From Candidatus Staskawiczbacteria bacterium (GTDB lineage Bacteria > Patescibacteriota > Minisyncoccia > Minisyncoccales > Staskawiczbacteraceae): a DNA stretch of 54,981 bases. The DNA is taken from assembly GCA_903835075.1 (NCBI GenBank), contig CAILLM010000006.1:1-54981 (forward strand). Direction: 5' to 3'. The notes beneath the pieces are model-generated. The model made no database searches. It was not told the DNA's origin and worked only from the letters and a program-made list of their open reading frames with translations. Positions 15,276 to 48,488 of this stretch are shown piece by piece. Positions within the stretch are counted from its first letter, which is position 1. The number at the start of each line of letters is the position of its first letter. Both the position numbers and the translations under genes were made by a program.

Positions 15276-16997
15276 TTATACAATCTCTTGCTGATAACAG
15301 GCCTCGCAGTAAACTATTTCCGGTCTGTCGGGCGCATATGACGTTTCGAATTCATTGGTGCAACCTTCTTTCATGCAATGCCTATGCCAAAGCTTAATGG
15401 GGTTACGCCATGCAAACCTTGCATAATGCCTACAATTCTGACAAATTTGCGGTAGGGGTATATTAAGTTTTTTATAAAATTGAAGTTCTTGATTGGTAAT
15501 TTTAAATACTCCCGCACATTCATGATTGCATGCACCTGCATGAACGCAACTTATGACTTCTTTTAATATATTGTCATCTACATTTTTAGCATCATCTGGC
15601 AATTCAGAGCCTAATTTTGTAACATTAAATTTTTTGTTTTTGGCGTCTTGCCATATAAAACCATGATGTTCTGCCTCTTCTTTTGTAAAAGGGAAAAAAT
15701 CATTAGCAAACGACTGGTTATAAGCTATGGGACTCATTTCTGCTGGGAAAAATTCTCCATATTTATAAATACAACCATTTTTGTCTACATAGGGCATGTC
15801 ATTCATATGTTGGATAATTTTTGGAACAAGAGTCTCGTATTCTTCTTTTGTGTATTGTTTATTCAAAATACAATACTGTTTGTTACGCAAACTTACACAC
15901 CCAAACAATGAAGACGAATTTTGAACACAATAATAGCAATAAGATAGATTCGAAATAGTTGAGTAACACTGTGACGAAAAGCTAATATTGTATGCTCCAA
16001 TTCCCACTATAACCGATTCATAAATTAGTTCACTTCCCTCTCCAAAACCACTATGGTCATAAGAGTCTTTTGCAGGTCCAATACTAAAATTATGGCAATA
16101 TTTAACATTTTCACCATTAATAACTCTCCAACAGTATTGAGCATTTTTTGAATCTTTGATGTAATCTCCCAAAACATTAGCATTGTGCCTGCCGTGCATA
16201 AATTTATTCGGGAATTTTATCCAAAAACTAATGGCCTTATTTCGCATTTCCTCAATATTTTTTCTAGAGCTCAAATTAAATTCTTTTAACTTCTGAATGT
16301 ATTCTTCTTTTGAGTAGGCTTGGTTAAAAATATGATATGCCTTGCTTTTTAAATTAATACATCCAAAACAATTGTTACACCCTGTGCAATTCTTAGAAAA
16401 AATTATATCATTGCAATCTTCACAATCTACTGAATATAGCACCTTATAGCATTTAACCAAATTAACAGAATCATAACAAAGTTCTGACTCAATAAACATA
16501 TAACAGTCAAAAATATCTTTAGAGTTTGCTCCCCAAATAGAATAAGCAGAATTTTCCACAAAAGAAGCTGCAAAAGTGAGATAGCAATCTTTTGGGTCTG
16601 TGGCATTCATGCAATAGTCGCTTCTTACGGGATTGGTAAGAGACCTAGACATTAATGGAACTTGATAAAATAAATCTTTAAATTGCTCAAAAAATGGTCT
16701 TGAAAAATCATAGTCTCTGCCATATTGCATTGGATCCCAAGAATCAGAATACCATTCTGCCGTATCTAGCACTTTTACTGGAGAATCTTCATGGTAATTA
16801 GAAAAAATCTCTTTCCCATGAATATCTTTTTTTCTAAAAAGCCTCCATTCATTTCTCCACGCAAAGCGACGCTGTGTCCTACAATCTGGACAAAACGTTG
16901 GTGCCGGTACTTTTATTTTTTCGTAGAACACAAAATCATCGGGCTCAATTACAAAGTCCTTTTTACAATTTTGACATGTTTTAACTTCTTGCTCCAT
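15276..16997 (-). CDS. Cys-rich protein with N- and C-terminal zinc-ribbon motifs, function unknown (paralog 1)
   Basis: CQNC..CPDC N-terminus, central periodic Cys repeats, CQNC and CEAC C-terminus; paralog at 46732..48459. Confidence 0.88.
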   Translation of the reverse strand: MEQEVKTCQNCKKDFVIEPDDFVFYEKIKVPAPTFCPDCRTQRRFAWRNEWRLFRKKDIHGKEIFSNYHEDSPVKVLDTAEWYSDSWDPMQYGRDYDFSRPFFEQFKDLFYQVPLMSRSLTNPVRSDYCMNATDPKDCYLTFAASFVENSAYSIWGANSKDIFDCYMFIESELCYDSVNLVKCYKVLYSVDCEDCNDIIFSKNCTGCNNCFGCINLKSKAYHIFNQAYSKEEYIQKLKEFNLSSRKNIEEMRNKAISFWIKFPNKFMHGRHNANVLGDYIKDSKNAQYCWRVINGENVKYCHNFSIGPAKDSYDHSGFGEGSELIYESVIVGIGAYNISFSSQCYSTISNLSYCYYCVQNSSSLFGCVSLRNKQYCILNKQYTKEEYETLVPKIIQHMNDMPYVDKNGCIYKYGEFFPAEMSPIAYNQSFANDFFPFTKEEAEHHGFIWQDAKNKKFNVTKLGSELPDDAKNVDDNILKEVISCVHAGACNHECAGVFKITNQELQFYKKLNIPLPQICQNCRHYARFAWRNPIKLWHRHCMKEGCTNEFETSYAPDRPEIVYCEACYQQEIV

Positions 16998-17017
16998 ATT
17001 TCTAAATTAGTTATTCT

Positions 17018-17041
17018 TCAGGTTACCATATGGTAACCTGA
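17018..17041. promoter_or_regulatory. Perfect 24-bp palindrome (candidate operator or recombination site)
   Basis: TCAGGTTACCATATGGTAACCTGA, 20 nt upstream of the Cys-rich gene ATG. Confidence 0.7.
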
Positions 17042-17058
17042 GCTCTCAGGGCACTCTT

Positions 17059-17250
17059 CTATTTTTGCAAATCTAACATGAGCTTTTTTATGTTAACATC
17101 ATTTTTGAAGATTATAAAATTTCTGCCCATTTTGGTCGCTTTTATATTCCCCCGCCAAATTCTCTTAAGCACAGACACCTTGCTAATTCCCAACTCTTTG
17201 GCTAACTCAGTTGTTGTATAAAAATTATTCTGAATTATTTTATTGCTCAT
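17059..17250 (-). CDS. Small helix-turn-helix DNA-binding protein (excisionase/HTH_17-like)
   Basis: FYTTTELAKELGISKVSVLKRIWRGNIKATKMGRNFII fits the MerR/Xis-type winged HTH. Confidence 0.85.
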   Translation of the reverse strand: MSNKIIQNNFYTTTELAKELGISKVSVLKRIWRGNIKATKMGRNFIIFKNDVNIKKLMLDLQK

Positions 17251-17261
17251 GTCTCGCTTAC

Positions 17262-17289
17262 TGTCAGGCTACCATATGGTAACCTGACA
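17262..17289. promoter_or_regulatory. 28-bp palindrome with one mismatch, second copy
   Basis: TGTCAGGCTACCATATGGTAACCTGACA, 11 nt upstream of the HTH ATG. Confidence 0.7.
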
Positions 17290-17296
17290 AACTTAA

Positions 17297-18502
17297 CTAT
17301 TTTTGACAAACATAAAAAATTGGGGATTTAAAGGAATTGAACCCGTTCCACAAAGATGCCCTTCTTGATTCTGCATCTTTTTTTGATAATTCTCCCATAC
17401 CTTTAAAGTCTACCAAGCTAAAGCCGGCGTCTAAAATCTGCTGTTTTACTTCATTCACGCTGGAAAGGTGTAAAAACTGTTTTTGCTTTAACTTTTTACC
17501 CTCAGCATATCTTCTAAAAAACACATCGCCAAAATCTATTGCGCCACTCTTGAAAATTCTTTTACCCAACCAAAATAAAATAGTTTTTAAAGAATAATAT
17601 CTTTTGTGCGAAGTAAAAATATAAATTCCGCCGGGTTTTAAAACTCTATATATTTCATTTAAAGATTTTTGGCGAAATTGTTTACCAGGAATTTGTGCCC
17701 AGCCATTGTTTGCAAAAATAGCTCCGTCAAAAACATTATCACTAAAATCTAAATTGGTGGCATCACCCACAATGAATTTTATATCCAAATTTTGTGCTTT
17801 TGCATTTTCTTTAGCAATTTCAATCATCATGGGCGTAATATCAACGCCAATTACATAATAGCCCAATTTAAACAATGGAAAAGTCGTTCTTCCCGAGCCA
17901 CATCCAATATCAAGTATTTTAGAATTTTGCTGAAAATATTTCTTTATTAAAATTTCCTCACTTTCCCAAAATCCCACATTTGCATCTCTTTCATATCTTT
18001 TGCGAGTTACGTCTGAACCAAATTCATCAATGCTGTCCTGTTTTACTTTTTGAATATAATCCATTTTTTGTAGTTGCATGCATTTGCCAATATACTCCTC
18101 CGCTGCTATTTTATCTAAAAATCTTCCAACGGTTACTACTTTACCAGCACGATGGTCGAAAACGTGAGATACAAATTCAGTGAGTTTTTCTTGAATACTT
18201 GGACTGATTGATATTTCTTCTTCATTAAGTTTTGCTAAAATATTGTGGTCTTCTTTTCCATTTTCAGTTTGTTCCATCATTCCAATTGGTTCACATTCAA
18301 CAATCTCGCCCGTTTTTAATTTTTTATCGGTGATTATGAAGCAATCAAGATTATCTCCATCTCCACTGGTTGTTTCTAAAATAAAACCGTAAGGAAATGG
18401 GTATTCCCTTGATACAGTAATCGTTTTCTTGTACTCAAGTGTTTTTTCGTTATATAAGTTTTTCTGGTCAGAGCCAGCTTCATTTTCTATAAAGACTTTC
18501 AT
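17297..18502 (-). CDS. Family I inorganic pyrophosphatase fused to a class I SAM methyltransferase
   Basis: N-terminal YPFPYGFI and DGDNLD; C-terminal ILDIGCGSG, GDATNL and RVLKPGG. Confidence 0.82.
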   Translation of the reverse strand: MKVFIENEAGSDQKNLYNEKTLEYKKTITVSREYPFPYGFILETTSGDGDNLDCFIITDKKLKTGEIVECEPIGMMEQTENGKEDHNILAKLNEEEISISPSIQEKLTEFVSHVFDHRAGKVVTVGRFLDKIAAEEYIGKCMQLQKMDYIQKVKQDSIDEFGSDVTRKRYERDANVGFWESEEILIKKYFQQNSKILDIGCGSGRTTFPLFKLGYYVIGVDITPMMIEIAKENAKAQNLDIKFIVGDATNLDFSDNVFDGAIFANNGWAQIPGKQFRQKSLNEIYRVLKPGGIYIFTSHKRYYSLKTILFWLGKRIFKSGAIDFGDVFFRRYAEGKKLKQKQFLHLSSVNEVKQQILDAGFSLVDFKGMGELSKKDAESRRASLWNGFNSFKSPIFYVCQK

Positions 18503-18516
18503 ATTATTATCCTAAC

Positions 18517-18550
18517 AAAAAACCATCTCGATTAAAAGATGGCTTTTTTT
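18517..18550. terminator. Terminator downstream of nrdD
   Basis: AAAAAACCATCT...AGATGGCTTTTTTT. Confidence 0.7.
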
Positions 18551-18574
18551 ATTTTTTGATTATGCGGGCATTAC

Positions 18575-18646
18575 CTCGCCGTAGCTTTATGCGGAGGCGG
18601 GGATACTTTCTTCCATTGTCACGCCAGAGCTTTCAGCGGAAGCAGA
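18575..18646 (+). repeat. Two family B repeats forming the NrdD C-terminal tail and stop
   Basis: CTCGCCGTAGCTTTATGCGGAGGCGGG (18575-18601) contains the stop codon; a degenerate copy CGCCAGAGCTTTCAGCGGAAGCAG is at about 18622-18645. Confidence 0.65.
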
Positions 18647-20797
18647 TACTGCTTCGGTAACTTGCTGAGTTGTTTCCATTGGGAAAGCGAACTCTTTTCT
18701 TTCTTCAAATTCTTGCTTTTTACCTTTGTGCCATTGTTGAACAGGCCTTATGTAGCCGACAACCCTTGAATACACTTCACAAGGCTGTTTTATGGTGCAC
18801 TGAGGGCATTCAAAGTGTTCACCTGCAATATATCCATGGGTTGGGCAAATTGAGAATGTTGGAGTCAGTGTAATATATGGCAAGCTGTAATTTTCACAAA
18901 TTTTCTTTACCAAAGCTTTTGCCTGATTTGGATCTGAAACTTTTTCACCCAAGAAAATATGCAAAACTGTTCCACCTGTATATTTTGCCTGTAAGTCATT
19001 TTGTAAGTCTAAGGCTTCAAAAATATCATCTGTAAATCCTACTGGCAATTGGCTGGAGTTTGTGTAGTAAGGGACTTCTTTTGTTCCTGAAGTAATAATA
19101 TCTGGAAATTTTTCTCGGTCTGTACGAGCTTGCCTGTAGCTGGTTCCCTCTCCTGGAGTGGCTTCCAAGTTAAACAAGTTTCCTGTTTCTTCTTGGAACC
19201 TAACCATTGTGTCACGCATGAAATCCAAAACTTCAAGCGCAAACTTTTTGCCTTTTGGAGTTGTAATATCTTCTTCCAAAAAGTTAAGTAAAGCCTCATT
19301 CATTCCCATAATTCCAATTGTTGAGAAATGATTTCCAAAATAAGTATTTCTCATTTTTTTCATTTCTTCTAAGTAATGTCTGGAATATGGGTAAAGTCCT
19401 TTTTCCATAAAGTCATCTAATGCTTTTCTCTTAATTTCCAAACTTTCTTTTGCCAATTCCATTAATTTGGTTAATTTTTCAAAAAATTCTGTTTTTGTTT
19501 TTGAGGTATATCCAATTCTTGGCAAATTTATTGTAACTACTCCAATAGACCCTGTTTTTGGCGAAGAGCCAAACAATCCACCTCCTCTTTTATATAATTC
19601 TCTGTTATCTAATCTAAGCCTGCAACACATTGACCTGGCGTCGTCGGGGCTCATGTCGGACTGAATGAAGTTTGAGAAATAGTTAATTCCATATTTTGCT
19701 GTTGCTTCCCACATTGCAGTTAAGTTTGGGTTATCCCATTCAAAATCTTTTGTAATTGAAACTGTTGGAATTGGGAAAGTAAATGGTCTGCCCGAAGCAT
19801 CACCCTCCATTAATCCTTCATAAAATGCTCTAATAAACATATCCATTTCTGGCTGGAAATCGCCGTAAGTTTCATTTTGTGGTTCACCTCCAATAATTAC
19901 CGGTTGTTTTGCCAAGAAACTTGGCGCCTTAATGTCTAAAGAAACATTTAAAAATGGCGTTTGAAAACCAACGCGGGTTGGCACCATGCAGTTGTATAAA
20001 AATTCCTGCATAGATTGCTTAACTTGCTTGTAGTCTAGTTTGTCATACCTAATAAATGGTGCCAAAAGCGTGTCAAAGTTTGAAACCGCATTTGCTCCAG
20101 CTGTTTCTCCCTGCAAAGTAAACAAAACGTTAACCAATTGCCCCAAGGCTGTTCTAAAATGTTTTGGTGCTCGGCATTCTATTTTTCCGGAAACTCCGCC
20201 AAACCCTTTTACTAAAAAGTCATACAAATCCCAACCTGCGCAATAAGGAGCCAATAATTCTAAATTGTGAATGTGAAAATCTTCGCTTAAAGCAGCATCT
20301 CTAATTTCTTTAGGATAAATTTTGTTTAGCCAATATTTTTTTGAAATGTAAGAACCAACATATTGATTTAATCCTTGCAAAGAAAAAGTCATGTTGGCAT
20401 TTTCTTTAACTTGCCAATCAATTTCTTTTAAATAACTGTCCACTTTTTCAGAAGAATCGTCAGTTGCTTTTGTGGCTTCACGAATAGCTCTTCTTTGTTC
20501 GCGATACAAAACATAAGCCTTGGCGGTTTCAACCAAGCCTTCCAACATCAAGGCTTCTTCCACAATGTTTTGAACTTGCTCAATTGTTGGAATTTCCTCT
20601 TTTTTAAATCTGCGGTTCATTAAAGCAACCACTTTGTCGGAAACTCTTTTAGATTCTGGACCATTTCCTGAGTTTGTTGCAGTTACGGCCTTGTGAACGG
20701 CTTCGGCAATTTTCTCTTGGTCAAAATCAACAACCCTGCCGTCTCTTTTTCTAACTTTTTCTATATGGTTCTCTGTTTTTTTTATTTCTTCTGACAT
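18587..20797 (-). CDS. nrdD: Class III anaerobic ribonucleoside-triphosphate reductase with ATP cone
   Basis: VRKRDGR ATP cone, SMCCRL, EATPGEGTSYR, CPTH/CPQC and YSRVVGY glycyl-radical motif. Start set at MSEEIKK. Confidence 0.95.
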   Translation of the reverse strand: MSEEIKKTENHIEKVRKRDGRVVDFDQEKIAEAVHKAVTATNSGNGPESKRVSDKVVALMNRRFKKEEIPTIEQVQNIVEEALMLEGLVETAKAYVLYREQRRAIREATKATDDSSEKVDSYLKEIDWQVKENANMTFSLQGLNQYVGSYISKKYWLNKIYPKEIRDAALSEDFHIHNLELLAPYCAGWDLYDFLVKGFGGVSGKIECRAPKHFRTALGQLVNVLFTLQGETAGANAVSNFDTLLAPFIRYDKLDYKQVKQSMQEFLYNCMVPTRVGFQTPFLNVSLDIKAPSFLAKQPVIIGGEPQNETYGDFQPEMDMFIRAFYEGLMEGDASGRPFTFPIPTVSITKDFEWDNPNLTAMWEATAKYGINYFSNFIQSDMSPDDARSMCCRLRLDNRELYKRGGGLFGSSPKTGSIGVVTINLPRIGYTSKTKTEFFEKLTKLMELAKESLEIKRKALDDFMEKGLYPYSRHYLEEMKKMRNTYFGNHFSTIGIMGMNEALLNFLEEDITTPKGKKFALEVLDFMRDTMVRFQEETGNLFNLEATPGEGTSYRQARTDREKFPDIITSGTKEVPYYTNSSQLPVGFTDDIFEALDLQNDLQAKYTGGTVLHIFLGEKVSDPNQAKALVKKICENYSLPYITLTPTFSICPTHGYIAGEHFECPQCTIKQPCEVYSRVVGYIRPVQQWHKGKKQEFEERKEFAFPMETTQQVTEAVSASAESSGVTMEESIPASA

Positions 20798-20809
20798 AAA
20801 ATTGGGGAC

Positions 20810-20894
20810 AAAAAAAGGCATTTGATTTTAATTAGCTTATTGTTTAAAAATCATGACCCTCATTTCTAAACAATGAGTTTATTAAAATGCCTTT
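20810..20894 (-). promoter_or_regulatory. Long imperfect hairpin with U-tract in the nrdD 5' leader
   Basis: AAAGGCATTT (20814-20823) pairs with AAATGCCTTT (20885-20894); the inner arms 20829-20851 and 20862-20884 are mostly complementary. Confidence 0.5.
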
Positions 20895-20911
20895 CTAAAT
20901 TATTAATATTA

Positions 20912-20949
20912 TTTTCCCGCCGCAGCGGGATCCCGCTTTGGCGGGAAAA
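20912..20949. repeat. Family C double hairpin (intergenic)
   Basis: TTTTCCCGC-CGCA-GCGGGA-TCCCGC-TTTG-GCGGGAAAA. Confidence 0.85.
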
Positions 20950-20966
20950 TCGACTAGATTACTCCT

Positions 20967-21025
20967 ATTTTACTCTACCCAACAGCCCTGTCAAATCCTG
21001 ATTTACCTATACAACCTGTGGATAA
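20967..21025 (-). promoter_or_regulatory. nrdD promoter with upstream consensus DnaA box
   Basis: TTGACA-16-TAAAAT (20994-20967); TTATCCACA at 21025-21017. Confidence 0.6.
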
Positions 21026-21033
21026 CTCCATTT

Positions 21034-21987
21034 TTAAAATTTTGTTGCTATAACTGTAATTTTTAATTCTCCTTTTTTTAAATTATTATCTTTAACTGCA
21101 CCAAAAATTATTTCTGCTTTTGAGTCTACGTTTTTGGTTATAACTTTTGCTGCTTGCTGTATTTCATTTAACGTAACATCATTTCCAGCAACAGAAAATA
21201 AAACTCCTTTAGAACCTTGGATTGAAAAATCTAGCAATGGCGAACTAATAGCTTTTTCAGCTGCCACTACTGCCCTGTTTTCCCCCAAAGCTCTTCCTGC
21301 CCCAAACAATGCTTGACCAGAATTTTTCATAATAGAAACCACTGAAGCAAAATCAATGTTTATAATTCCAGGCACTAAAATTAAATCTGTAATTGATTGT
21401 ACTGCTTCCCGCAAAATATCGTCACAAATCAAAAATGCTTCTGAAACTGTAGTTTTTTCGTCAATAATTTTTAAAAGCTTATCATTAGATATAACCAACA
21501 AAGAATCCACATGGCTGCGTAAATTTTTTATTGATTCTACTGCAATGTTTTTTCTTTCTTGTCCTTCAAAAGAAAACGGCGTAGTAACCACCCCAATAGT
21601 TAAAATGCCAAGACTTTTTGCAATCTCGGCAACAACAGGCGAAGCCCCCGAACCAGTTCCTCCGCCCAACCCACAAGTCACAAAAACCATATCAGCCTTG
21701 CCCGCCGTAGCCTTGGCAGAGGCGGGTCCCCCACATAACGCTTCAATAATTTCTTCTCTAGATTCTTCTGCTGATTTTCTTCCCAAATCCGCATCCATTC
21801 CTGTACCAAGTCCCTTGGTAGTATCTTTCCCAATTAAAATTTTCTTATGACATTTTGAAAAGTGCAAAGCTTGAGCATCAGTATTTAATGCCATCAATTC
21901 TGCTCCCTGCATTTCGAACTTAGCCATTCTAGAAACCGTGTTAGAGCCCGAGCCTCCAACTCCTATAACTTTTATACTTGGTTGCAT
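21034..21987 (-). CDS. ftsZ: Cell division protein FtsZ (divergent, no C-terminal tail)
   Basis: IKVIGVGG, NTDAQAL, GLGGGTGSG and PFSFEG; adjacent to ftsA. Confidence 0.93.
   Translation of the reverse strand: MQPSIKVIGVGGSGSNTVSRMAKFEMQGAELMALNTDAQALHFSKCHKKILIGKDTTKGLGTGMDADLGRKSAEESREEIIEALCGGPASAKATAGKADMVFVTCGLGGGTGSGASPVVAEIAKSLGILTIGVVTTPFSFEGQERKNIAVESIKNLRSHVDSLLVISNDKLLKIIDEKTTVSEAFLICDDILREAVQSITDLILVPGIINIDFASVVSIMKNSGQALFGAGRALGENRAVVAAEKAISSPLLDFSIQGSKGVLFSVAGNDVTLNEIQQAAKVITKNVDSKAEIIFGAVKDNNLKKGELKITVIATKF
21698..21726 (+). repeat. Family B repeat, in frame in ftsZ
   Basis: TTGCCCGCCGTAGCCTTGGCAGAGGCGGG; encodes PASAKATAGK. Confidence 0.88.
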
Positions 21988-22002
21988 AACAATTCTATCC
22001 GT

Positions 22003-23229
22003 TTACGGGATGAAGTTTTTAAGCCACCTTTTAAGTTTGGCCCACCACCCCTGGATTGGGTTTATCATACCCCCATTTCCGTCTGGGTCAACCCCCTCCA
22101 AAACCAAACCAACTACTGTGGCCAACGCAGGATCATCTTGCAAACCAATTATGCCCTGTGGTTTTCCTATTTCACAAGATAATTTTAAAACTTCTTTTGT
22201 AAGTTCTTTTATTTTAGGAATTTTTGCACCACCACCAGTTATAACAATTCCTCCAGGCAAAGCACCTTGTCTATTAATTTTTTTCAATTCTTTTTGGACT
22301 AAATCCAAAATTTCTGAAACCCTTGGCTCAATAATATCCACCAAATTCTTTTTTGTAAAGTTAAGTGATTCTGAATTTTCAAAAATTTCTATTTTTCTTT
22401 TTGTTTGGTCTTTCTTATCTTTTTCAATTTTAGCAAACATGCATGCGCCATATTGTTTTTTAATTGACTCAGCAATTGGAACTTCTGTTTTAAGACCAAT
22501 AGCAATATCATTTGTAATATTTGCCGATCCAATTGGGAAAATTGCCAAATGAATTAAATCTCCCTCTTCAAAAACCGCCAAAGAAGTTGTGGCTGAGCCA
22601 ACATCAATCAAAGCAACCCCCAATTCTTTTTGTTGCGGAGTCAAAACAGCATTTGCCGCAGCTAGTGGCGAAGGAATCACATCTCTAATTTGTAATTTAG
22701 AACCCAAAACCGCTTGAGTTAAATTTGTAAAATATGGCTGAAAATAACAAAGTAACAACACTTTTGCCTCCAGCCTAACACCAGTTAAATTTTCAGGTTG
22801 CTTTATACCTCTTTGGTCATCAATAATAAATTCTTTAGGAATAACATCAAGTATCTCATCATTTTTAGAAGAAATATTTATTGCTCTAGTTGCCTGTAAA
22901 ACCCTATCAACATCTTCTTTAGAAATTCTTTGGTCTGCCCTTGAAACAGAAATTATGCCGTCTGAAGGAGTAACATACAAATGACTGCCTCCAATATTCA
23001 CATAAACAGAATCAATTCTTCTGTTACAATCTTTCTCAATCCCAGACATTATCATTTGTATATTTTTCACGGTTTCTTCAGCAGAAACAACTGCACCTTT
23101 TCTAAGTCCAAAAGAAGGAATTTCCGCATAAGACAAAACTTCCCAGTCATTTCCTTTTTTCTGAGCCACAAGCGCCTTAATGCTATGTGTCCCAATATCT
23201 AAACCAGTAATAATATTATTACGCGCCAT
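22003..23229 (-). CDS. ftsA: Cell division protein FtsA
   Basis: GLDIGT, IDVGSATT and ITGGG motifs; C-terminal amphipathic helix WWAKLKRWLKNF. Confidence 0.95.
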   Translation of the reverse strand: MARNNIITGLDIGTHSIKALVAQKKGNDWEVLSYAEIPSFGLRKGAVVSAEETVKNIQMIMSGIEKDCNRRIDSVYVNIGGSHLYVTPSDGIISVSRADQRISKEDVDRVLQATRAINISSKNDEILDVIPKEFIIDDQRGIKQPENLTGVRLEAKVLLLCYFQPYFTNLTQAVLGSKLQIRDVIPSPLAAANAVLTPQQKELGVALIDVGSATTSLAVFEEGDLIHLAIFPIGSANITNDIAIGLKTEVPIAESIKKQYGACMFAKIEKDKKDQTKRKIEIFENSESLNFTKKNLVDIIEPRVSEILDLVQKELKKINRQGALPGGIVITGGGAKIPKIKELTKEVLKLSCEIGKPQGIIGLQDDPALATVVGLVLEGVDPDGNGGMINPIQGWWAKLKRWLKNFIP

Positions 23230-23236
23230 AATTATT

Positions 23237-23662: not shown

Positions 23663-23664
23663 AA

Positions 23665-24192: not shown

Positions 24193-24223
24193 TATTATAT
24201 TTTACACCATTTTCAAATAAAAC

Positions 24224-24244
24224 AAAAACCGCCTTACGGCGGTT
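24224..24244 (-). terminator. Intrinsic terminator
   Basis: AACCGCC-TTAC-GGCGGTT-type stem with a U-tract on the minus strand. Confidence 0.7.
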
Positions 24245-24248
24245 CAAT

Positions 24249-24965: not shown

Positions 24966-24994
24966 AGTAATAATTTTTAATTTCTAATTTTTAA

Positions 24995-26281: not shown

Positions 26282-26305
26282 TTATTTTTTATTTTTATTT
26301 TTAAA

Positions 26306-37387: not shown

Positions 37388-37392
37388 ACACT

Positions 37393-37424
37393 TAAAAAAC
37401 GCGACCAATTGGTCGCGTTTTTTA
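37393..37424. terminator. Bidirectional terminator (perfect palindrome)
   Basis: TAAAAAACGCGACCAATTGGTCGCGTTTTTTA. Confidence 0.8.
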
Positions 37425-37425
37425 T

Positions 37426-38172: not shown

Positions 38173-38174
38173 AT

Positions 38175-40473: not shown

Positions 40474-41194
40474 TTAAAAAATATTCTAATTTTTTGACAT
40501 CTTCGGGTCTTCCGAAGTCCATCCAAAACCCATTAATTTTATTTATTTTTACCCCTTTCTCCTTAGCCAATAAAGAAACCGCATCTGTAATTTCGTATTC
40601 TCCTCTGGGAGACTTTTCTATTTGCCCCAATTTATCAAAAATTTCAGGAGTAAATTTGTACATACTCACATTTATTAAGTTGCCAAAAAACTCTTTGGCC
40701 CGCCCTGAGCCGAGCTGAAGGGGCTTTTCTACTATTTTTGTTAAAAACTCGCCATCGGCAACCAATACCCCAAAATTTTCTGGATGCTCATTCTCTATCC
40801 CAGAAACATAGCTAAATTCATCATCTATATTTATTGCTTTTAAGTCTTCCGCTGAATAATAGTTGTCCCCACTTACATATAAAAATTGCTCGTTTATATC
40901 CTTAACACACATCAATGGCACAGCTGTCCCATTTTTTTCATTAAAGTTAAAAAACTCAAATTGATTAATAACTTTTACATTATACTTATACTCTTTCAAA
41001 AATTCTTCTATCGACTGACCCTGGTACCCAACAATCAAAGTAATATCTTTATAGCCCGCTTCCAATAAATTATCTAAAACATAAGCCAAAAATGGCTTGC
41101 CGTTAACTTCAATCAAATGCTTTGGCTTATCTTGAGACAATTCTCCCATGCGGGTCCCCTTGCCTGCAGCACAAATAACAACTTTATTCACCAT
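40451..41194 (-). CDS. Sugar-phosphate nucleotidyltransferase
   Basis: AAGKGTRM, KPKHL, VEKP, SPRGEYEITD and WMDFG. Confidence 0.9.
   Translation of the reverse strand: MVNKVVICAAGKGTRMGELSQDKPKHLIEVNGKPFLAYVLDNLLEAGYKDITLIVGYQGQSIEEFLKEYKYNVKVINQFEFFNFNEKNGTAVPLMCVKDINEQFLYVSGDNYYSAEDLKAINIDDEFSYVSGIENEHPENFGVLVADGEFLTKIVEKPLQLGSGRAKEFFGNLINVSMYKFTPEIFDKLGQIEKSPRGEYEITDAVSLLAKEKGVKINKINGFWMDFGRPEDVKKLEYFLNGNNKSQ
40697..40723 (-). repeat. Family A repeat, in frame in the nucleotidyltransferase
   Basis: GCCCTTCAGCTCGGCTCAGGGCGGGCC; encodes PLQLGSGRA right after EK. Confidence 0.78.
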
Positions 41195-41750
41195 AGCCAA
41201 GATTAAATGCTTTAATATTAAGTTCTAAATATTTTTCAGGGATAACGTTTTTTATAGCTGTTAATGCAGACTCTTTTTTAATTGGCATTAATTTATTGGC
41301 AACAGCATGCCCCACCATGTACAAAGTACAAACAACTTCATTTTGCAATTTTTCTTTACAATCTTCAGATGCTGGCACCAAATAAAAATTACTTTTAAAG
41401 CCTCTAAGTTGTTTTATAATTTCTTCTTTTGTTGGAGCTCCAGGAATTGGTAAAATATAATTATTAACCAAAAGTCTTGTTTGTTTGCCAGCCTTAGCTG
41501 ATTCTCTCAAACCTTCCATTGCTTCCAAGGCTAAAATTAAATCTGCTTGCCCATTAGAAACCATAGGTGAAAAAACTTTTTTGCCAAACCTAATATGAGC
41601 CTCAACGCTCCCACCTCTTTGTGAAAGGCCATGAAGCTCAGAAGATTTTACATCATACCCCTCAACAACTGCTGCTTCATCAATTACTTGAAGCAAGGTA
41701 ATTATTCCCTGTCCACCAACTCCTGTTAAAATTAAATTAAAATTTTCCAT
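41184..41750 (-). CDS. iorB: Indolepyruvate:ferredoxin oxidoreductase beta subunit
   Basis: GVGGQG, ELHGLSQRGGSV and NIKAF. Confidence 0.9.
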   Translation of the reverse strand: MENFNLILTGVGGQGIITLLQVIDEAAVVEGYDVKSSELHGLSQRGGSVEAHIRFGKKVFSPMVSNGQADLILALEAMEGLRESAKAGKQTRLLVNNYILPIPGAPTKEEIIKQLRGFKSNFYLVPASEDCKEKLQNEVVCTLYMVGHAVANKLMPIKKESALTAIKNVIPEKYLELNIKAFNLGYGE

Positions 41751-41754
41751 AGTA

Positions 41755-43374
41755 TTAAGATTTTTTTTGTCTGCGCTCTAATAGTGCGCAAATTCTTTTA
41801 CAAATTATTAATGAAATTTCATCTTTTTCTAAAAATTCCTTAACTGTGCTTTCCAATTCCTTTATACTAATGGGGTCTAAAACTTTGATATGCTTTACCC
41901 CACAAGCTTTAGCAATTTCTTCTATACTAACTTGCGTTGTGTCTTCCCCCATTAAAGTTTTTCCCATTCCAGGGTTTGGCTGGTGACCTGTCATTGCTGT
42001 GATCCTATTATCCAAAATAACCATCAATGGTTTTGATTTATTATAAACAGCGTTTAAAAGTGGCGAAATTCCTGCATGAAAAAATGTTCCATCTCCCATT
42101 ATAGAAATTACTTTTTGATTGGTGGACTTTGAGACTCCATGACCAATTCCTAAACTAGCTCCCATAGAAAACAACGTATCTTGTATGTTGTGTGGGGCAA
42201 ACCCTGCAATCATATTACACCCAATATCCCCTGTAAAAATAGCATTAGGTGCAACTCTTTTTAAGGTTGGGAAAACATACCAATATGGGCAACCTTCACA
42301 TAGCCTAGCGGTTCTTCTTGGTAAATCAATTTTCTTTACTTTAAATTCTAAAAATTTCTTGCCTGTTATTTTTGCCAATGCAACACAAACTTTTTCTGTG
42401 TTTAATTCTCCGATTATTGGCAAAACATTTTTTCCAAAAATTTGCAACTTTAAATTTTCTATTTTCGCTAAAACATTAACCTCTCTTTCTATATAGCCAT
42501 CTAATTCTTCAACAACTAAAAGTTTTTTTAATGGATGAATAAATTTTTTAATTTTATCTTCTGGTAATGGGTAAAAAAATCCAAGTTTTAAAATTGGCAA
42601 ATCTAATTTCAAAACTTCTAAAGCCTCTTTAACGTGCAGATATGAAACACCAGAAGTTATAACCCCAACCTTATTCTTTGATGAATCTATTAAATTTATT
42701 TTTGACTTCTCAGCAAATATCTGAATTTTTTTAATCTTATCTAAAAGCTCTTTCTTCATCTCCATTGTTCGTGGAGGCATTGTAGCAAACTGATAAGGAT
42801 TTTTTTCAAATTGCCCTTTTTTAAATTCAGCATTTTTTTTAACATCTTCAAACGTTACTGGCATTTTTTGGTGATTAACCCTTGTCGTCGTATGCAAAAT
42901 AACAGGTGTATTAAACTTCTCTGAAATTTCAAAACCTAGTTTTGTAAAATCATAACACTCTTGAGGATCAGCTGGTTCTAATGTTGGAATGTGCCCAAAC
43001 TGTGAATAAATTCTTGTGTTTTGTTCTGTTTGAGCCGAGCTCCAGCAAGAGGGATCATCAGCAATAACAATAACCATGGCCCCCTTGGTGCCAGTGTAGG
43101 CTAATGGCAACAAAGAGTCCGAACAAACATTAATTCCAAAACTTTTCATGCTAACCAAGGTTTTTAACCCCGAAAAGCTGGCTCCAATTGCCGACTCTAG
43201 GCCAACCTTTTCATTGGTTGCCCACTCTACATAGACCCCATTTTGTGCGGCAATTTTGGCAAAATCGTCTCCAATTTCTGCTGAAGGGCATCCAGGATAT
43301 CCTGAAACATAAGAAACCCCTGAATCTATGGCTGCTTGGATTATTGCATTGTTTCCTAATAATATTTTTTTCAT
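41755..43374 (-). CDS. iorA: Indolepyruvate:ferredoxin oxidoreductase alpha subunit (no C-terminal ferredoxin domain)
   Basis: GYPGCPSAE, NEKVGLE, LCEGCP, GDIGC, GDGTFFH and LDNRITAMTGHQ. Confidence 0.9.
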   Translation of the reverse strand: MKKILLGNNAIIQAAIDSGVSYVSGYPGCPSAEIGDDFAKIAAQNGVYVEWATNEKVGLESAIGASFSGLKTLVSMKSFGINVCSDSLLPLAYTGTKGAMVIVIADDPSCWSSAQTEQNTRIYSQFGHIPTLEPADPQECYDFTKLGFEISEKFNTPVILHTTTRVNHQKMPVTFEDVKKNAEFKKGQFEKNPYQFATMPPRTMEMKKELLDKIKKIQIFAEKSKINLIDSSKNKVGVITSGVSYLHVKEALEVLKLDLPILKLGFFYPLPEDKIKKFIHPLKKLLVVEELDGYIEREVNVLAKIENLKLQIFGKNVLPIIGELNTEKVCVALAKITGKKFLEFKVKKIDLPRRTARLCEGCPYWYVFPTLKRVAPNAIFTGDIGCNMIAGFAPHNIQDTLFSMGASLGIGHGVSKSTNQKVISIMGDGTFFHAGISPLLNAVYNKSKPLMVILDNRITAMTGHQPNPGMGKTLMGEDTTQVSIEEIAKACGVKHIKVLDPISIKELESTVKEFLEKDEISLIICKRICALLERRQKKS

Positions 43375-43375
43375 T

Positions 43376-45811
43376 TTATATGACTATGTTGATTAATTTA
43401 TTATACACAAAAACTATTTTTTTTACCTCGGCGTCACCAATTAGGACTTTTATTTTTTCAGATTTTAAAACTAATTTTTCAACTTCTTTTTGTGAAGAAC
43501 CAGCCTTCATTTCTATTTTGTCGCGTACTTTCCCGTTTATTTGTACTATTAAAAGTACTCTTTTTTCTTCAATTAATTTTTCATCATACTTTGGCCATTT
43601 CTGTTGGCAACATAGATCTTTGTTACCCAAACTTACCCATAGTTCTTCGGCTAAGTGCGGAGCAAACGGAGAAAAAATTCTCAAAAAGTCAGCCAAGTCT
43701 TTTTTATCTAAACCATTTTCCGAAGTCTGCCATGCGTTTACAAATTCCATCATTGAGCTAATTGCAGTATTAAATTTTAAATTTTCAACATCTTCCCCAA
43801 CTTTCTTAATTGTTTTATGTAAAACTTTTTTCAGCGCCTCATCAGTCTTAGTAGCCATTTTCTTCTGTGCAGCTAAATTGTAAACTTTATCAACAAATCT
43901 TCGGCAACCCACCACCCCCTTCGTATCCCAGGGAATCATTTGCTCAAATGGTCCCATAAACATTTCATAAATTCTTAAAGTATCGGCGCCATATTGCTTT
44001 ATAATTGTATCGGGGTTTATAACATTTCCTTTTGACTTAGACATTTTGATTCCGCCTTCTCCCAAAACCATTCCATGCGAAGTTCTTTTTTTATAGGGCT
44101 CTGAACCAACACTTGCTGGCACTGCTTTAATGTCCCATAAAAATTTAAAAATAAACCTTGAATATAACAAATGCAAAGTTGTGTGCTCCATCCCTCCGTT
44201 ATACCAATCAACAGGCATCCAATATCTCATAGCTGAGTCATCAGATAATTTTTTATTATTTTTTGGGTCTATGTATCTTAAAAAATACCAATTGCTTCCT
44301 GCCCAATTTGGCATAGTGTCGGTTTCTCTTTGTGCAGGACCCTTGCAATTTGGGCAATCAGTTTTAACCCATTTTTCAATTAAAGAAAGTGGAGATTCTC
44401 CTGTGCCAGTTGGCTTATATTTTTTGACATTAGGTAGCTTTATCGGTAAGTCTTTTTCTTTAACCGGTTGCCAACCGCATTTTTTACAAAATACCATTGG
44501 AATTGGCTCGCCCCAATAATGCTGTCGTGAAAAAACCCAATCTCTCAACTTATAAGTTATTTTTGAGTTTGCTAATCCTTTAGCTGAAAGCCATTCAATT
44601 ATTTTTGGTCTAGCATCAGCAGACTTTAAACCATCAAATTCTTGAGAGTTATAAAGTGTTCCGTCGTCTTCAAAACATTCTTCTAAGTTTTTTACTTTTT
44701 GGGTTAATTCTTCATTGTCAGGTTTTATGGAAGTACGTAAAGGTATCCCATATTTCTTTGCCATTTTAAAATCTCTTTTATCATGGGCATCAGCAAAAAC
44801 AGCTCCCGTACCATAGTGGTCTAAAACAAAGTCAGCTGTCCAAACTGGCATTTCTTCGTTGGTTACAGGATTTCTAACCATAATCCCTTTCAACTGCACC
44901 CCTGTAATTTCTTTATCTTGATTTGTCCTGTCCATATCTGACGCGTTCTTCGCACCTTCTCTATATGCCAAAACTTCTTCAATATTTTCAATTTTATTTC
45001 TGTATTTATCAATAAAACTGTGCTCTGGAGACAAAATTAAAAATGTTCCAGAAAAAATTGTATCAACCCTGGTTGTAAAAACTTCTAAGTCTTCATCAAT
45101 TCCCTCAACATGAAATTTAACCACTGCTCCATGCGACTGGCCAATCCAATCTCTTTGTTGAGTTTTAATTTTTTCTAGATAGTCAACATCCTCTAAATCT
45201 TTAATTAATCTTTCAGCATAATTGGTAATTTTTATCATCCACTGATCTTTTTCCTTTTTTTCTACTTTTGTCCCACACCTCTCACACTTTCCATCAATTA
45301 CTTCTTCATTAGCTAAACCAATCTTATCTTTCGGACACCAATTTATAGAAATTTTACTTTTGTACGCTAATCCATTTTTAAATAATTGTATAAAAATCCA
45401 CTGCGTCCATTTATAATATTTTGGATCTGTTGTATCAATTTCACGGCTCCAATCAAAAGACAAACCTAAGTTCTGCATTTGACTTCTAAAATTATCTGTA
45501 TTCTTCTTTGTAACTACCGATGGGTGAACTCCTTTTTTAATAGCATAATTTTCTGTTGGTAAACCAAAAGCATCCCAACCCATTGGATACAAAACATTAT
45601 AACCTTGCATTCGGCGTTTGCGGGCAATTATGTCAAAAGCAGTAAAGCTTCGGCAATGCCCTACATGAAGCCCATCTCCCGAAGGGTATGGAAACTCCAC
45701 CAAAAGATAATATTTCTTCTTTTTAGAGCCATTTTTAGCCTTAAAAACGCCCGACGAGTACCACTTATTCTGCCATTTCTGCTCTATTTTTTTAGGATTA
45801 TATTTTGCCAT
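43376..45811 (-). CDS. leuS: Leucine--tRNA ligase
   Basis: FPYPSG, HVGH, SRQHYWG and KMSKS. Confidence 0.97.
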   Translation of the reverse strand: MAKYNPKKIEQKWQNKWYSSGVFKAKNGSKKKKYYLLVEFPYPSGDGLHVGHCRSFTAFDIIARKRRMQGYNVLYPMGWDAFGLPTENYAIKKGVHPSVVTKKNTDNFRSQMQNLGLSFDWSREIDTTDPKYYKWTQWIFIQLFKNGLAYKSKISINWCPKDKIGLANEEVIDGKCERCGTKVEKKEKDQWMIKITNYAERLIKDLEDVDYLEKIKTQQRDWIGQSHGAVVKFHVEGIDEDLEVFTTRVDTIFSGTFLILSPEHSFIDKYRNKIENIEEVLAYREGAKNASDMDRTNQDKEITGVQLKGIMVRNPVTNEEMPVWTADFVLDHYGTGAVFADAHDKRDFKMAKKYGIPLRTSIKPDNEELTQKVKNLEECFEDDGTLYNSQEFDGLKSADARPKIIEWLSAKGLANSKITYKLRDWVFSRQHYWGEPIPMVFCKKCGWQPVKEKDLPIKLPNVKKYKPTGTGESPLSLIEKWVKTDCPNCKGPAQRETDTMPNWAGSNWYFLRYIDPKNNKKLSDDSAMRYWMPVDWYNGGMEHTTLHLLYSRFIFKFLWDIKAVPASVGSEPYKKRTSHGMVLGEGGIKMSKSKGNVINPDTIIKQYGADTLRIYEMFMGPFEQMIPWDTKGVVGCRRFVDKVYNLAAQKKMATKTDEALKKVLHKTIKKVGEDVENLKFNTAISSMMEFVNAWQTSENGLDKKDLADFLRIFSPFAPHLAEELWVSLGNKDLCCQQKWPKYDEKLIEEKRVLLIVQINGKVRDKIEMKAGSSQKEVEKLVLKSEKIKVLIGDAEVKKIVFVYNKLINIVI

Positions 45812-45858
45812 AGTATTTTCCTATAATAGCACAATCATATAAATTTTAAAGCCCCAAC

Positions 45859-45885
45859 AAAAAACCGCCCTTTGGGGCAGTTTTT
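45859..45885. terminator. Terminator after tatD
   Basis: AAAAAACCGCCC-TTT-GGGGCAGTTTTT. Confidence 0.65.
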
Positions 45886-45886
45886 A

Positions 45887-46729
45887 CTATATTTTAAACA
45901 ATTTTTTAGCGTTTGCAGTTGTTGCAGAGGCAACTTCATCAAAACTTAGACCTTTTAGATCGGCTATTTTCTGGATAACGTGTTTTACAAATATTGGCTC
46001 GTTTCGGGCGTCCTTCGCTGTTCCCTCCTTCGCCAAGGCTACGGCGGGCAAGGGTGTTAGATAAGGGCAGTCAGTTTCAACTACAATTTTATCTAAAGGA
46101 ATTTTTCTAATGATTTCATCAATATCAAATTTAAAAATAATTCCATTAATTCCAATACAAAAACCTAAAGCTAAATATTTTTCTGCTTCTTCCCATGTTC
46201 CTGTAAAACAATGAATTGTTCCTGAGACTTTGTGTTTTTCTAAAATTGCCAAAGCATCTTCATGGGCCATTCTGCAGTGCACAATTAAGGGCAGGCCCAA
46301 CTCCTCTGCTAACTCAATTTGCTGAATAAAAACTTTTCTTTGATTTTCTTTAAATTCTTCTTTTTTTGTTGTGCCTTTTGGTTTGTAATAGTAGTCCAAA
46401 CCAACTTCACCAATTGCCACCACTTTTTTTGACTTTGCTAATTCTCTGTATTTTTCCTTATCAAAAACCTCTCCAAGGGGAGCAAAATCACCTTCATCTA
46501 AGTCCATATGCAACTTCATTAAATCAGTTTTTATATGAATTGGGTGCATTCCAATTGCAGCATATATTCCTTCATTTTTTTCTGCCAACTCAATAGCATG
46601 TTGTGAGGTTTCATATTTTGTACCAACATCTATGCAAACACCCCCCGCCACTTGCGTGCGTTTTATTACCTCACCCCTATCGGCATCATACGCCTTAAAA
46701 TTTAAATGACTATGTGTGTCTATTATCAT
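45887..46729 (-). CDS. tatD: TatD family hydrolase
   Basis: IDTHSH, GMHP, IGEVGLDY, HCR, HCF and ETDCPY; start reassigned to 46729. Confidence 0.95.
   Translation of the reverse strand: MIIDTHSHLNFKAYDADRGEVIKRTQVAGGVCIDVGTKYETSQHAIELAEKNEGIYAAIGMHPIHIKTDLMKLHMDLDEGDFAPLGEVFDKEKYRELAKSKKVVAIGEVGLDYYYKPKGTTKKEEFKENQRKVFIQQIELAEELGLPLIVHCRMAHEDALAILEKHKVSGTIHCFTGTWEEAEKYLALGFCIGINGIIFKFDIDEIIRKIPLDKIVVETDCPYLTPLPAVALAKEGTAKDARNEPIFVKHVIQKIADLKGLSFDEVASATTANAKKLFKI
46023..46051 (-). repeat. Family B repeat, in frame in tatD
   Basis: TTGCCCGCCGTAGCCTTGGCGAAGGAGGG; encodes LPAVALAKEG between PYLTP and RNEP. Confidence 0.88.
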
Positions 46730-46731
46730 GA

Positions 46732-48459
46732 TTATATTATTTCTTGTTGATAACATTGCTCGCAATAGACTATTTCTGACCTATCTGGTGCATAAGAGGT
46801 TTCAAATTCATTGTTGCAACCTTCGTTCATACATTTTCTGTGCCAAAGTCTCATAGAACTTTGGTTTTTAACTCTTCTTACGTGTCTACAATTATGACAC
46901 AAATGCGGAATCGGCAACTTATGAAATCTATAAAAATCCAATTCCTGCTTTGTAATTTTGAAAGCCGTTGTGCATCTACAAGCACATTCGCCTTTGTGGG
47001 CACAACCCATAGTTTCTTTTAATATGTCATCTGTAACGTCTTTTATATTATCTGATAGTTTCTCTGACTCCAATGTAACTTTATAATCTTTTTGCCCAGC
47101 TTCTTGCCACCTGAAGCCTTGGTCTAAAGCTTGCTGCTTGGTTATAGGGAAATCATCTGCAGCCACTGTTTCATTATAAGCAAACGGAGCAAGCTCTGGC
47201 GGGAAAAATTCTCCATATTTATATGTCCTGCCTTTCACATCAACATACGGCATTTCGTCCATGTGCTTAATAATCTTTGGCACCAACTCCTCATACTCTT
47301 TTCTAGTATATTGTTTATTAAAAATACAATATTGTTTTTGTTGCAAGCCCACACAGCCGAAAAGGTTAGACGAAGAATTGCATAACATGCAATAAGTACA
47401 ATTATGTGCTGCTTTTGTAACTCTGTAACTCAGCTTTATATTAGAGCATTCTTCTCCGCAACTTGATACTTCATATATAAGCTCTATATTTTGCCCGTAA
47501 AGCGAAACGTCCATGGCATCTTTAGTGGTTGGAGTTATCATATATTGAATATACCTACAGTCTTCGCCGTTTTGGACATAATAAGAATCGCGAACATTTT
47601 TAGAATTGTTAATATACTCTCCGGAAATGTTGAAATTATGTTTTCCGTGGGCAAAACGCACAATACTTTTTGAAAAAATATCCTCAACTTTCTCTTTAAA
47701 CGCTTCTACATTCTTTGCTGACCCAAAATCAAATTCCGCAAATTTTTTCTTATATTCTTCTTTGCTGTATGGCTGATTAAAAATATGATATTGCTTGTTG
47801 CGCAAATTAACGCAACCAATACAATTCATACAACCCTGCAAATTTTTAGAAAACCAAATATCCACACAATCCTCACAATCGGTTGAAAAAAATACTTTGC
47901 TCGATTTAACTACATAAAATGATTCATAGCAATATTCCGAAAATTGTAACCTTGTAGTGTCGATACAATTTTTGATATTATTTGCCCAAGCCGAATACAT
48001 ACAATCCTCGCCCCACGTGACAACAAAAGTTAAATAACAATTTTTTAAGCCAGTTGCTCCCGAGCAATAATCACTATTTTCATCATACCACATCGTCTGA
48101 CTGGCTCTAGGAACTTTTAAAGATAACTCTCGGAGCTGTTCAAAAAATGGCTTAGAAAAATCATAATCTTTTTCATATTCCATCGGGTCCCATTTATCTG
48201 AAAACCAAATGTCTTTTTCATAAACCTTGTATGGAGAATCCGGATGAATTATAGAAAAAATTGTTTCTCCGCTCCAGTCGCTCTTCCTTTTATAAAGCAC
48301 GCGGAAATCTCTCCAAGCCAGACGCCTTTGAGCACGACATTTTGGACACCAAGTTGGCGCTGGCACCTTCATTTTTTCATAGAATGCAAAGCCATCTGGC
48401 TCTATAGTAAAGTCTTTTTTACAGTTTTGACATGATTTAGCTTCACTCCTTTCTTCCAT
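46732..48459 (-). CDS. Cys-rich zinc-ribbon protein, function unknown (paralog 2)
   Basis: Shares CQNCKKDF, KVPAPT, YKYGEFFP and NEFETSYAPDR..IVYCE.CYQQEI with 15276..16997. Confidence 0.88.
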   Translation of the reverse strand: MEERSEAKSCQNCKKDFTIEPDGFAFYEKMKVPAPTWCPKCRAQRRLAWRDFRVLYKRKSDWSGETIFSIIHPDSPYKVYEKDIWFSDKWDPMEYEKDYDFSKPFFEQLRELSLKVPRASQTMWYDENSDYCSGATGLKNCYLTFVVTWGEDCMYSAWANNIKNCIDTTRLQFSEYCYESFYVVKSSKVFFSTDCEDCVDIWFSKNLQGCMNCIGCVNLRNKQYHIFNQPYSKEEYKKKFAEFDFGSAKNVEAFKEKVEDIFSKSIVRFAHGKHNFNISGEYINNSKNVRDSYYVQNGEDCRYIQYMITPTTKDAMDVSLYGQNIELIYEVSSCGEECSNIKLSYRVTKAAHNCTYCMLCNSSSNLFGCVGLQQKQYCIFNKQYTRKEYEELVPKIIKHMDEMPYVDVKGRTYKYGEFFPPELAPFAYNETVAADDFPITKQQALDQGFRWQEAGQKDYKVTLESEKLSDNIKDVTDDILKETMGCAHKGECACRCTTAFKITKQELDFYRFHKLPIPHLCHNCRHVRRVKNQSSMRLWHRKCMNEGCNNEFETSYAPDRSEIVYCEQCYQQEII

Positions 48460-48468
48460 AATTTGTTT

Positions 48469-48488
48469 AGGTTGCCCTAGGGCAACCT
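48469..48488. promoter_or_regulatory. Perfect 20-bp palindrome, covariant of the 17018/17262 motif
   Basis: AGGTTGCCCTAGGGCAACCT, 9 nt upstream of the paralog 2 ATG. Confidence 0.7.

Follow-up and report, generated by a model that had tools for sequence, protein, structure and literature searches.

Integron cassettes are delimited by attC sites, elements of 57-141 bp that carry RYYYAAC and GTTRRRY boxes, and clusters of attC sites lacking integron integrases (CALINs) have, by definition, no integron integrase. Repetitive extragenic palindromic (REP) sequences and Rickettsia palindromic elements (RPEs) are short palindromes dispersed between and inside genes. BldC, Xis, and RdfS are solo MerR-like winged helix-turn-helix (HTH) proteins (HTH_17, TIGR01764; structures 6ama, 4j2n, and 8dgl), and BldC is described as binding direct repeats head to tail, with bases read by Lys26 and Arg30 of its helix 25-34 (PMC5859096). 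SPDIR, or short-patch double illegitimate recombination, in Acinetobacter baylyi copies short patches from elsewhere in the genome at microhomologies and leaves clustered substitutions (10.1101/2024.07.02.601687). The subject here is a 63-residue solo winged-HTH protein and the 20-bp palindromes associated with it in a 54,981-nucleotide stretch of Candidatus Staskawiczbacteria bacterium (GCA_903835075.1, contig CAILLM010000006.1; the window), which resemble each of these systems in part. With a probability of roughly 0.55, the palindromes are private operators of solo 60-residue winged-HTH repressors, and short-homology recombination of the host, with no dedicated integrase, has placed at gene junctions the copies that lie away from any HTH gene.

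The genome to which the window belongs, as contig C6, is a Staskawiczbacteria-like one of the Patescibacteria (G000), 794 kb long and 98% complete; relatives' genomes are numbered likewise (G021, G027, G038, G040, G042, and others). An earlier note on this DNA had described two Cys-rich paralogs, an HTH gene, three palindromes, and two split pairs of housekeeping genes, all of which are present where it placed them. The HTH gene and the palindromes are as follows.

17266..17285: site upstream of the HTH gene; ACC type with one mismatch; likely the autoregulatory operator; ends 15 nt before the HTH start codon
17059..17250, minus strand: solo 63-residue winged-HTH gene; HTH_17, predicted BldC/Xis-like fold; V25, L28, and K29 fit an ACC-type site
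17020..17039: site downstream of the HTH gene; a perfect ACC palindrome, extending to 24 bp when its TC/GA flanks are counted; also ends 22 nt before the start codon of a Cys-rich gene
48469..48488: orphan site; GCC type, perfect; ends 9 nt before the start codon of the other Cys-rich gene; identical to both sites at the HTH paralog on contig C9 and not of the window HTH's type

These three matches compare with 0.01 expected from shuffled sequence. The 17020 site lies 19 nt past the HTH stop codon, so that the HTH gene is flanked by two sites, a feature absent from the earlier note. The two perfect palindromes differ by two compensatory pairs, at positions 6/15 and 9/12, as the earlier note had observed. 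The intervals 13923-20922 and 46368-49772 are each spanned by a single public contig with zero differences, both from one study and possibly from the same source DNA. A degenerate AGGTT-N10-AACCT sequence with 6 of 10 pairs follows a DoxX gene at 9752-9771 and is probably a chance match or a decayed site.

The whole genome holds 15 sites, against none or one in each of four shuffles, and three close HTH paralogs, each with its own site type: ACC in the window, GCC on contig C9, and AAC on contig C5. Bracketing of the HTH gene by its sites is usual in the solo family. Homologs of up to 75 residues number 99 distinct proteins from 169 loci, 96 of them with full flanks; a site lies upstream of 79, downstream of 66, and on both sides of 59. 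The two members of a pair are of one type in 57 of these 59 cases (shuffle mean 18.6), a foreign type appears in just two of the 66 downstream sites, and all 147 bracket sites are inverted repeats. The site finder skipped 19-bp variants that are visible by eye, which makes the bracket counts lower bounds; the site consensus was drawn from the same data, which makes the presence counts partly circular and leaves the link between residues and bases unaffected. Across 151 genomes of the order, the four that contain the pattern are the same four that encode a solo HTH. One of the four, G297, comes from another family, and its only two sites bracket its solo HTH gene.

The type of the site follows three residues of the protein. 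In upstream sites, Gln-25 is paired with G at base 6 in 31 of 31 cases and Ile-25 or Val-25 with A in 50 of 50. Phe-28 is paired with A at base 7 (40/40) and Leu-28 with C or T (39/39), two sites having been dropped from this comparison for differing arms. At bases 2-3, Tyr-29 is paired with TC (5/5) and Lys-29 or Glu-29 with GG (65/65), with 11 sites dropped for the same reason. A scan of every alignment column over 86 rows finds zero errors only at columns 25, 28, and 29; the next-best columns make 9, 6, and 1 errors. Seven site types or more occur at solo HTH loci. It is very likely that the HTH family reads the palindromes, which are likely its operators because their letters track residues 25, 28, and 29 of the predicted recognition helix. 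This three-residue protein-DNA code is new here.

The predicted structure places the code where a DNA-reading helix would be expected. The window HTH passes the curated cut-offs of PF12728 (29.6 bits versus 27) and TIGR01764 (31.6 versus 28.8). Its AlphaFold model has a predicted local distance difference test score (pLDDT) of 78 and consists of two helices, a two-strand wing, and a third helix, with no MerR coiled coil; residues 25, 28, and 29 lie inside predicted helix 24-33. By comparison of secondary structure, Lys26 and Arg30 of BldC appear to correspond to positions 25 and 29 at a one-residue offset. The window HTH resembles BldC, Xis, and RdfS in size, predicted topology, and apparent base-reading register. 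A homodimer prediction scores 0.00 and weighs neither way, and a sequence search of solved structures returns no HTH match at E 0.01. Unlike BldC, the family is tied by its sequences to a 20-bp inverted repeat, and it differs from this group of proteins in having sites on both sides of its gene and no partner integrase nearby, with none at the three HTH loci of G000.

The solo HTH has a palindrome in its own promoter region that covaries with its recognition helix, which is the pattern of an autoregulatory repressor. Longer relatives, namely an 85-residue HTH encoded before a Doc toxin and 241-residue HTH fusions, share the HTH domain and mostly carry one related site, upstream only, which suggests that the pairing of solo HTH and palindrome arose from their autoregulatory setting. 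Compared with this likely ancestral arrangement with Doc/Fic or fused partners, the C-terminal part and partner gene are gone from the solo form, a downstream site has been added, and the site types have diversified. Named homologs of the HTH and of the Cys-rich protein come mostly from Candidatus Staskawiczbacteria. A phage origin was considered and rejected: the viral contigs searched contain no HTH relative, and the BFVD database gives only short zinc-ribbon matches with E above 0.03. Judged from its sequences, the family appears to work as an autoregulated repressor with a REP-like operator, and to be neither an integron nor a tagged REP, nor a binder of direct repeats of the BldC kind.

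Sites also occur away from any HTH gene, and their surroundings suggest how they came to be there. Among orthologs of a nucleotidyltransferase, a conserved motif is kept in 18 of 20, while in G021 and G038 a few codons are overwritten in frame at unchanged length and a native half-site has become a full GCC site. Some sites overlap or replace stop codons, a single 20-nt flank is joined to five different core types in G038, and sites are stacked beside the palindromes of PaaX-like and other regulators. G021 encodes one HTH, of ACC type, but carries seven GCC, two AAC, and one GTC sites; G042 has an HTH of ATCTT type but AGGTT sites. The genes behind orphan sites are mixed and include those for a methyltransferase, GNAT, HD, HAD, and hydrolase proteins, DUFs, gltX, lepA, a gatB-like gene, and tatD.

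The proposed mechanism begins with an HTH dimer that would very probably bind the two half-sites. The protein would repress its own gene, with the upstream site often at the place expected of a leaderless -10 box. Less firmly, protein-bound or self-folding sites of 20-30 bp may survive as short fragments; these may anneal at microhomologies, for example at the invariant outer arms or at a half-site present by chance, in the manner of SPDIR, and may thereby bring sites to junctions that gain and lose accessory genes. The ragged site patches at short homologies resemble those of SPDIR (10.1101/2024.07.02.601687). The window encodes ComEC, and competence genes are described as prevalent in the phylum (PMC12455944). 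Recombination dispersal of this kind appears preferable to a Cys-family regulon or to attC-type cassettes.

Several observations weigh against this account. The HTH model's nearest Foldseek matches (MerR-type domains, Xis, BldC, and RacA) have high probability with E values all above 0.02; the match to 6ama (probability 1.00, TM score 0.63, E 0.067) is suggestive and not significant by E value. In a tree built without the recognition helix, the trait changes coincide (4 and 4; 6 and 6), with only one independent pair on supported branches of a poorly resolved topology, so that co-evolution is not statistically established. Sites inside genes amount to 2 of 229 distinct sites in the loci, both at the same place and possibly from one inherited event. 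Almost all orphan sites retain intact arms, including those for which a matching HTH was not found (G021), an outcome equally compatible with selection and with very recent copying. The descriptions of SPDIR concern single-stranded DNA (10.1101/2024.07.02.601687) and come from A. baylyi rather than Patescibacteria, and its donors are not known to favor operator sites; a bias toward protein-bound donors, or their protection, is a hypothesis of the present analysis and lies outside SPDIR as described. G000 also encodes, elsewhere, enzymes that could act in trans: four serine recombinases, six small GIY-YIG proteins, one Y1 protein, and one Xer-like protein. The four large serine recombinase genes are at C4:136162, C8:4931, C2:67569, and C4:159072, and none of them is beside a site.

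The Cys-rich genes and the core genes that surround them bear on the two readings that the earlier note had offered, an HTH-controlled regulon and palindrome-tagged cassettes. They are arranged as follows.

18587..20821, minus strand: nrdD, left core gene of insertion 1
17297..18502, minus strand: accessory gene, inorganic pyrophosphatase domain fused to an S-adenosylmethionine (SAM) methyltransferase
15276..16997, minus strand: Cys-rich paralog 1, 573 residues; predicted zinc knuckles at both ends and two predicted beta-solenoid segments; no significant Pfam or NCBIfam family
15215..15263, minus strand: remnant of the 3' end of a second Cys-rich gene, its last nine codons and stop, beside a REP-like repeat, as read from the sequence
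14383..15114, minus strand: radical SAM activase of the nrdG type, right core gene of insertion 1
48496..49917, minus strand: metG, left core gene of insertion 2
46732..48459, minus strand: Cys-rich paralog 2, 575 residues
45887..46729, minus strand: tatD, right core gene of insertion 2

The two Cys-rich paralogs contain 32 Cys each and are 53% identical. The family is present in 12 of 201 genomes of the phylum, usually in multiple copies: 12 in G000 and up to 23 matches in G021. A site precedes the start codon by 8-22 nt in six of the 12 copies in G000, and the other six have none. Among 69 full-length copies in six genomes of the genus, 19 have an upstream site (20 matches minus one spurious) and two more have a 19-bp variant; among more distant Patescibacteria, all 28 copies in nine genomes lack the 20-bp site. 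The scan for enrichment upstream of this family, which the earlier note had proposed, thus finds the site lacking from half of the G000 copies, about 50 of the 69 genus copies, and every distant copy. Well-supported ortholog groups of the Cys-rich genes have differing loci and differing sites or none, some other copies are headed by unrelated palindromes, and 9 of the 15 sites in G000 have no Cys-rich gene downstream and lie at HTH genes or ahead of unrelated genes. Of the three findings by which the earlier note would have refuted its reading, two are therefore observed: other paralogs lack the motif, and it is scattered at unrelated intergenic sites.

A regulon of multiple specificities would keep orphan sites by selection as portable promoter-operators, giving the HTH paralogs a means of tuning accessory genes in trans, the Cys-rich ones among them. 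Half-site classes of the resident paralogs (AAC/AAT, ACC, and GCC) make up 14 of the 15 sites in G000, most sites lie 8-60 nt ahead of a start codon and between co-directional genes, and the intact arms noted above are also compatible with such control. The right arm, TAACCT, resembles a -10 box, and the genome appears to be leaderless, with a TA[TAG][AG]AT peak 6 nt before the start codon and a Shine-Dalgarno-like motif in only 6 of 317 operon heads. Nevertheless, the downstream genes have no common function, orthologous Cys-rich genes differ in site type or lack a site, G021 and G042 carry types whose HTH was not found, and sites also lie after genes and inside one, which leaves this explanation doubtful, though the most credible of the alternatives. 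Regulation of the Cys-rich family as such was rejected, because most paralogs lack a site and orthologs differ. What survives of the regulon in the earlier note is that the HTH family very likely reads the palindromes. Its single shared motif and its Cys-specific control are unsupported because the 48469 site matches the C9 paralog, many Cys-rich copies lack a site, orthologs carry differing sites or none, and nine sites are not upstream of a Cys-rich gene. The Cys-rich genes appear to be the commonest passengers of site junctions and not the purpose of the system, and some of them may be repressed incidentally.

The model of the Cys-rich protein (pLDDT 85, predicted TM score 0.87) has a Cys knuckle region at each end and, between them, two Cys-rich segments that vary; nine cysteines are invariant (C8, C11, C36, C39, C484, C541, C546, C564, and C567). 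The structure prediction suggested in the earlier note yields putative zinc-knuckle ends and no clear structural relative. For the variable segments, the best structural matches are beta-helix proteins and are weak (Z 4.6, root-mean-square deviation 3.0 over 90 residues). Treble-clef matches are weak and under the cut-off, a Foldseek search of the Protein Data Bank with the whole model returns nothing under E 6, and a sequence search of solved structures finds only a LIM-like C-terminal knuckle. A search with the protein returned 7989 matches among 8000 candidates, and clusters in the ESM Atlas are unnamed or called "putative zinc-binding". The protein is predicted to consist of zinc knuckles around beta-solenoids and may, as a guess from the model, be a cytoplasmic zinc-stabilized binding scaffold with a diversifying solenoid surface. 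Exchange of Cys-rich genes through homogenized ends was considered and found weak: identity over the first 35 codons is 0.739 within a genome versus 0.717 between genomes, a small excess, although shared leaders are plain in G038 and G021. At about 1.7 kb for each of the 23 matches in G021, this family accounts for as much as about 5% of a genome of 0.8 Mb; neither a fold nor a function is assigned to it.

Both split gene pairs have empty forms in relatives, in the comparison that the earlier note had proposed. In the window, nrdD and nrdG are separated by the pyrophosphatase-methyltransferase fusion, the HTH gene, and a Cys-rich gene; metG and tatD are separated by the second Cys-rich gene. 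The former pair are neighbors in 21 of 30 loci examined; the other nine are split or have no nrdD nearby, four of these with a site and the rest with unrelated genes. In G021 a site precedes the methyltransferase in its unfused form; the fusion in the window has no site ahead of it. Across 25 metG-tatD loci of the genus, the genes abut in 5, are 373-776 bp apart in 11, and are farther apart or unresolved in 9. Within 1.5 kb after metG, a site before tatD is found only in G000, and G021 has three further on. The 48469 site probably belongs to the metG-tatD junction, with the Cys-rich open reading frame having arrived behind it, because in G021 a GCC site and a near-identical 9-nt leader lie directly ahead of tatD. 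Both junctions accept inserts with or without a palindrome.

Two kinds of content at these junctions stand apart from the palindromes. In relatives (L070, L073, L081, L084, L090, L385, L388-L390, L392, L397, L398, L400, and L402), the metG-tatD gap is a segment of 400-780 bp with a GC content of 39-49%, compared to 35% for the genome, and frequently has promoter-like sequence where it starts and terminator-like sequence where it ends; it is possibly an RNA of unknown type or a fast-evolving small gene. Seven such loci scanned gave no Rfam match for the segment, and a tRNA was the sole match of the Rfam scan. Beside nrdG in G027 and G040 (L101 and L102), reverse-transcriptase-like open reading frames accompany small accessory genes and, judged by eye, resemble diversity-generating retroelements.

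Gene gain and loss beside the sites invites a second explanation, in which the sites serve for recombination, either as attC-like elements or as att sites used in trans by a serine or tyrosine recombinase, and the HTH is an Xis-like directionality factor. Like integron cassettes and CALINs, these loci hold accessory genes separated by palindromic sites with no neighboring integrase. The fold is modeled as Xis/RdfS-like, both sites occur around a solo HTH in another family (G297), and bracket pairs share the same central 6 bp in 29 of 59 cases versus 16 expected within a helix class, as duplication upon entry would give. The sites themselves do not resemble attC: they are perfect dyads of 20-24 bp with no R/L boxes or extrahelical bases, no fixed orientation, and ragged boundaries that cut into stop codons, and the attC hallmark is found in 0 of 235 sites with 50 nt of context. 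Asymmetric bracket pairs are direct in 8 cases, inverted in 4, and different in 11. Mixed-arm sites all combine one-base neighbors; no AAC/GCC hybrid occurs, even though AAC and GCC are the most frequent types, and mid-site crossover between types is likewise unsupported. The sole tyrosine recombinase in this 98% complete genome is Xer-like (107 versus a TIGR02249 cut-off of 265), no excision joint occurs at sites among the joints shown by public contigs, and the viral contigs hold no relatives. Integrase-less cassettes are accordingly improbable. The tagged cassettes of the earlier note hold insofar as the sites mark junctions; precise boundaries do not, and the same junctions take site-free inserts.

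A third explanation treats the sites as REP- or RPE-like hairpins spread in trans by a Y1 enzyme (REP-associated tyrosine transposase, RAYT) or a GIY-YIG nuclease, to which the HTH adapted afterwards. The length of 20-24 bp, intergenic bias, and in-frame tolerance resemble those reported for REPs (PMC3733652), and the genome is rich in such repeats and in small GIY-YIG genes. A GTAG/CGTC tag, by contrast, is near only 7 of 235 sites; this count and the absence of attC boxes led to the rejection of both tagged REPs and attC sites. Y1 genes occur in two of five site-rich genomes and not near sites, there is no flanking RAYT, and the Y1 gene at C8:99854 has no site, the nearest being about 20 kb away. 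The sites further differ from REPs and RPEs in their 4-18 copies per genome and in having a matching DNA-binding protein; their type tracks the HTH and not a nuclease, and the in-gene case is an overwriting substitution and not an insertion. This origin is very unlikely, the least probable of the three alternatives, and dispersal of operators by host recombination remains the preferred account.

GC-rich REP-like repeats of another kind are present in the window at 14628, 15247, 46020-46050, 50357, and approximately 40700, several of them in frame inside nrdG, tatD, and the nucleotidyltransferase gene. In G000, a 236-residue gene at C5:11538-14350, between a Cys-rich gene and an HTH paralog, is surrounded by and contains many palindromes of 12-14 bp. 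Tandem arrays of paralogs of about 270 residues with shared ends, at C2:2255-11257 and C8:66-4155, form a second expanded family.

Other regulators of G000 have comparable sites. Two PaaX_M genes of 179 residues (C3:25564-26194 and C8:46583-47235) each lie between their own 30-bp palindromes, of which orphan copies occur beside Cys-rich genes and groEL. Upstream motifs of Rrf2 (C3:62238) and MarR (C4:99192) genes recur as orphans at a Cys-prfB junction and elsewhere, and at that junction the orphan motifs differ between G000 and G021. An ArsR-like gene on C10 is bracketed by a 33-bp element, a copy of which lies in frame at 1562-1594 of the window in the linker of an SNase gene (1119..1703); in G038 and G040 the SNase linker carries that element, or a variant of it, elsewhere along its length. 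Self-bracketing thus extends beyond the HTH_17 family to PaaX-like and ArsR-like regulators, and orphan copies extend to these and to the Rrf2 and MarR regulators, whose genes have one palindrome, upstream.

A literature search, made without subscription papers or bioRxiv supplements, found no description of the HTH-palindrome pairing or of the Cys-rich family, which may be listed in the family tables of 10.1101/335083. The self-bracketed mini-HTH family with a readable recognition code is real and apparently undescribed. Its three-residue code for DNA recognition is natural and nearly error-free, spans seven or more site types in a protein of 60 residues, and could supply orthogonal mini-repressors. 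Dispersed palindromes of Patescibacteria are also tied by it to particular DNA-binding proteins, a link relevant to the question of how short palindromic repeats originate and spread with no transposase. A broader and tentative proposal is that in these Patescibacteria protein-bound operators are themselves transposase-free mobile DNA: any small DNA-binding protein might seed copies of its own site, codons included, and self-bracketed solo HTH genes might be minimal selfish elements whose code diversifies under competition. If so, regulation would be rewired, and a Cys-rich family of 10-20 copies shuffled, by a mutational route of general reach.

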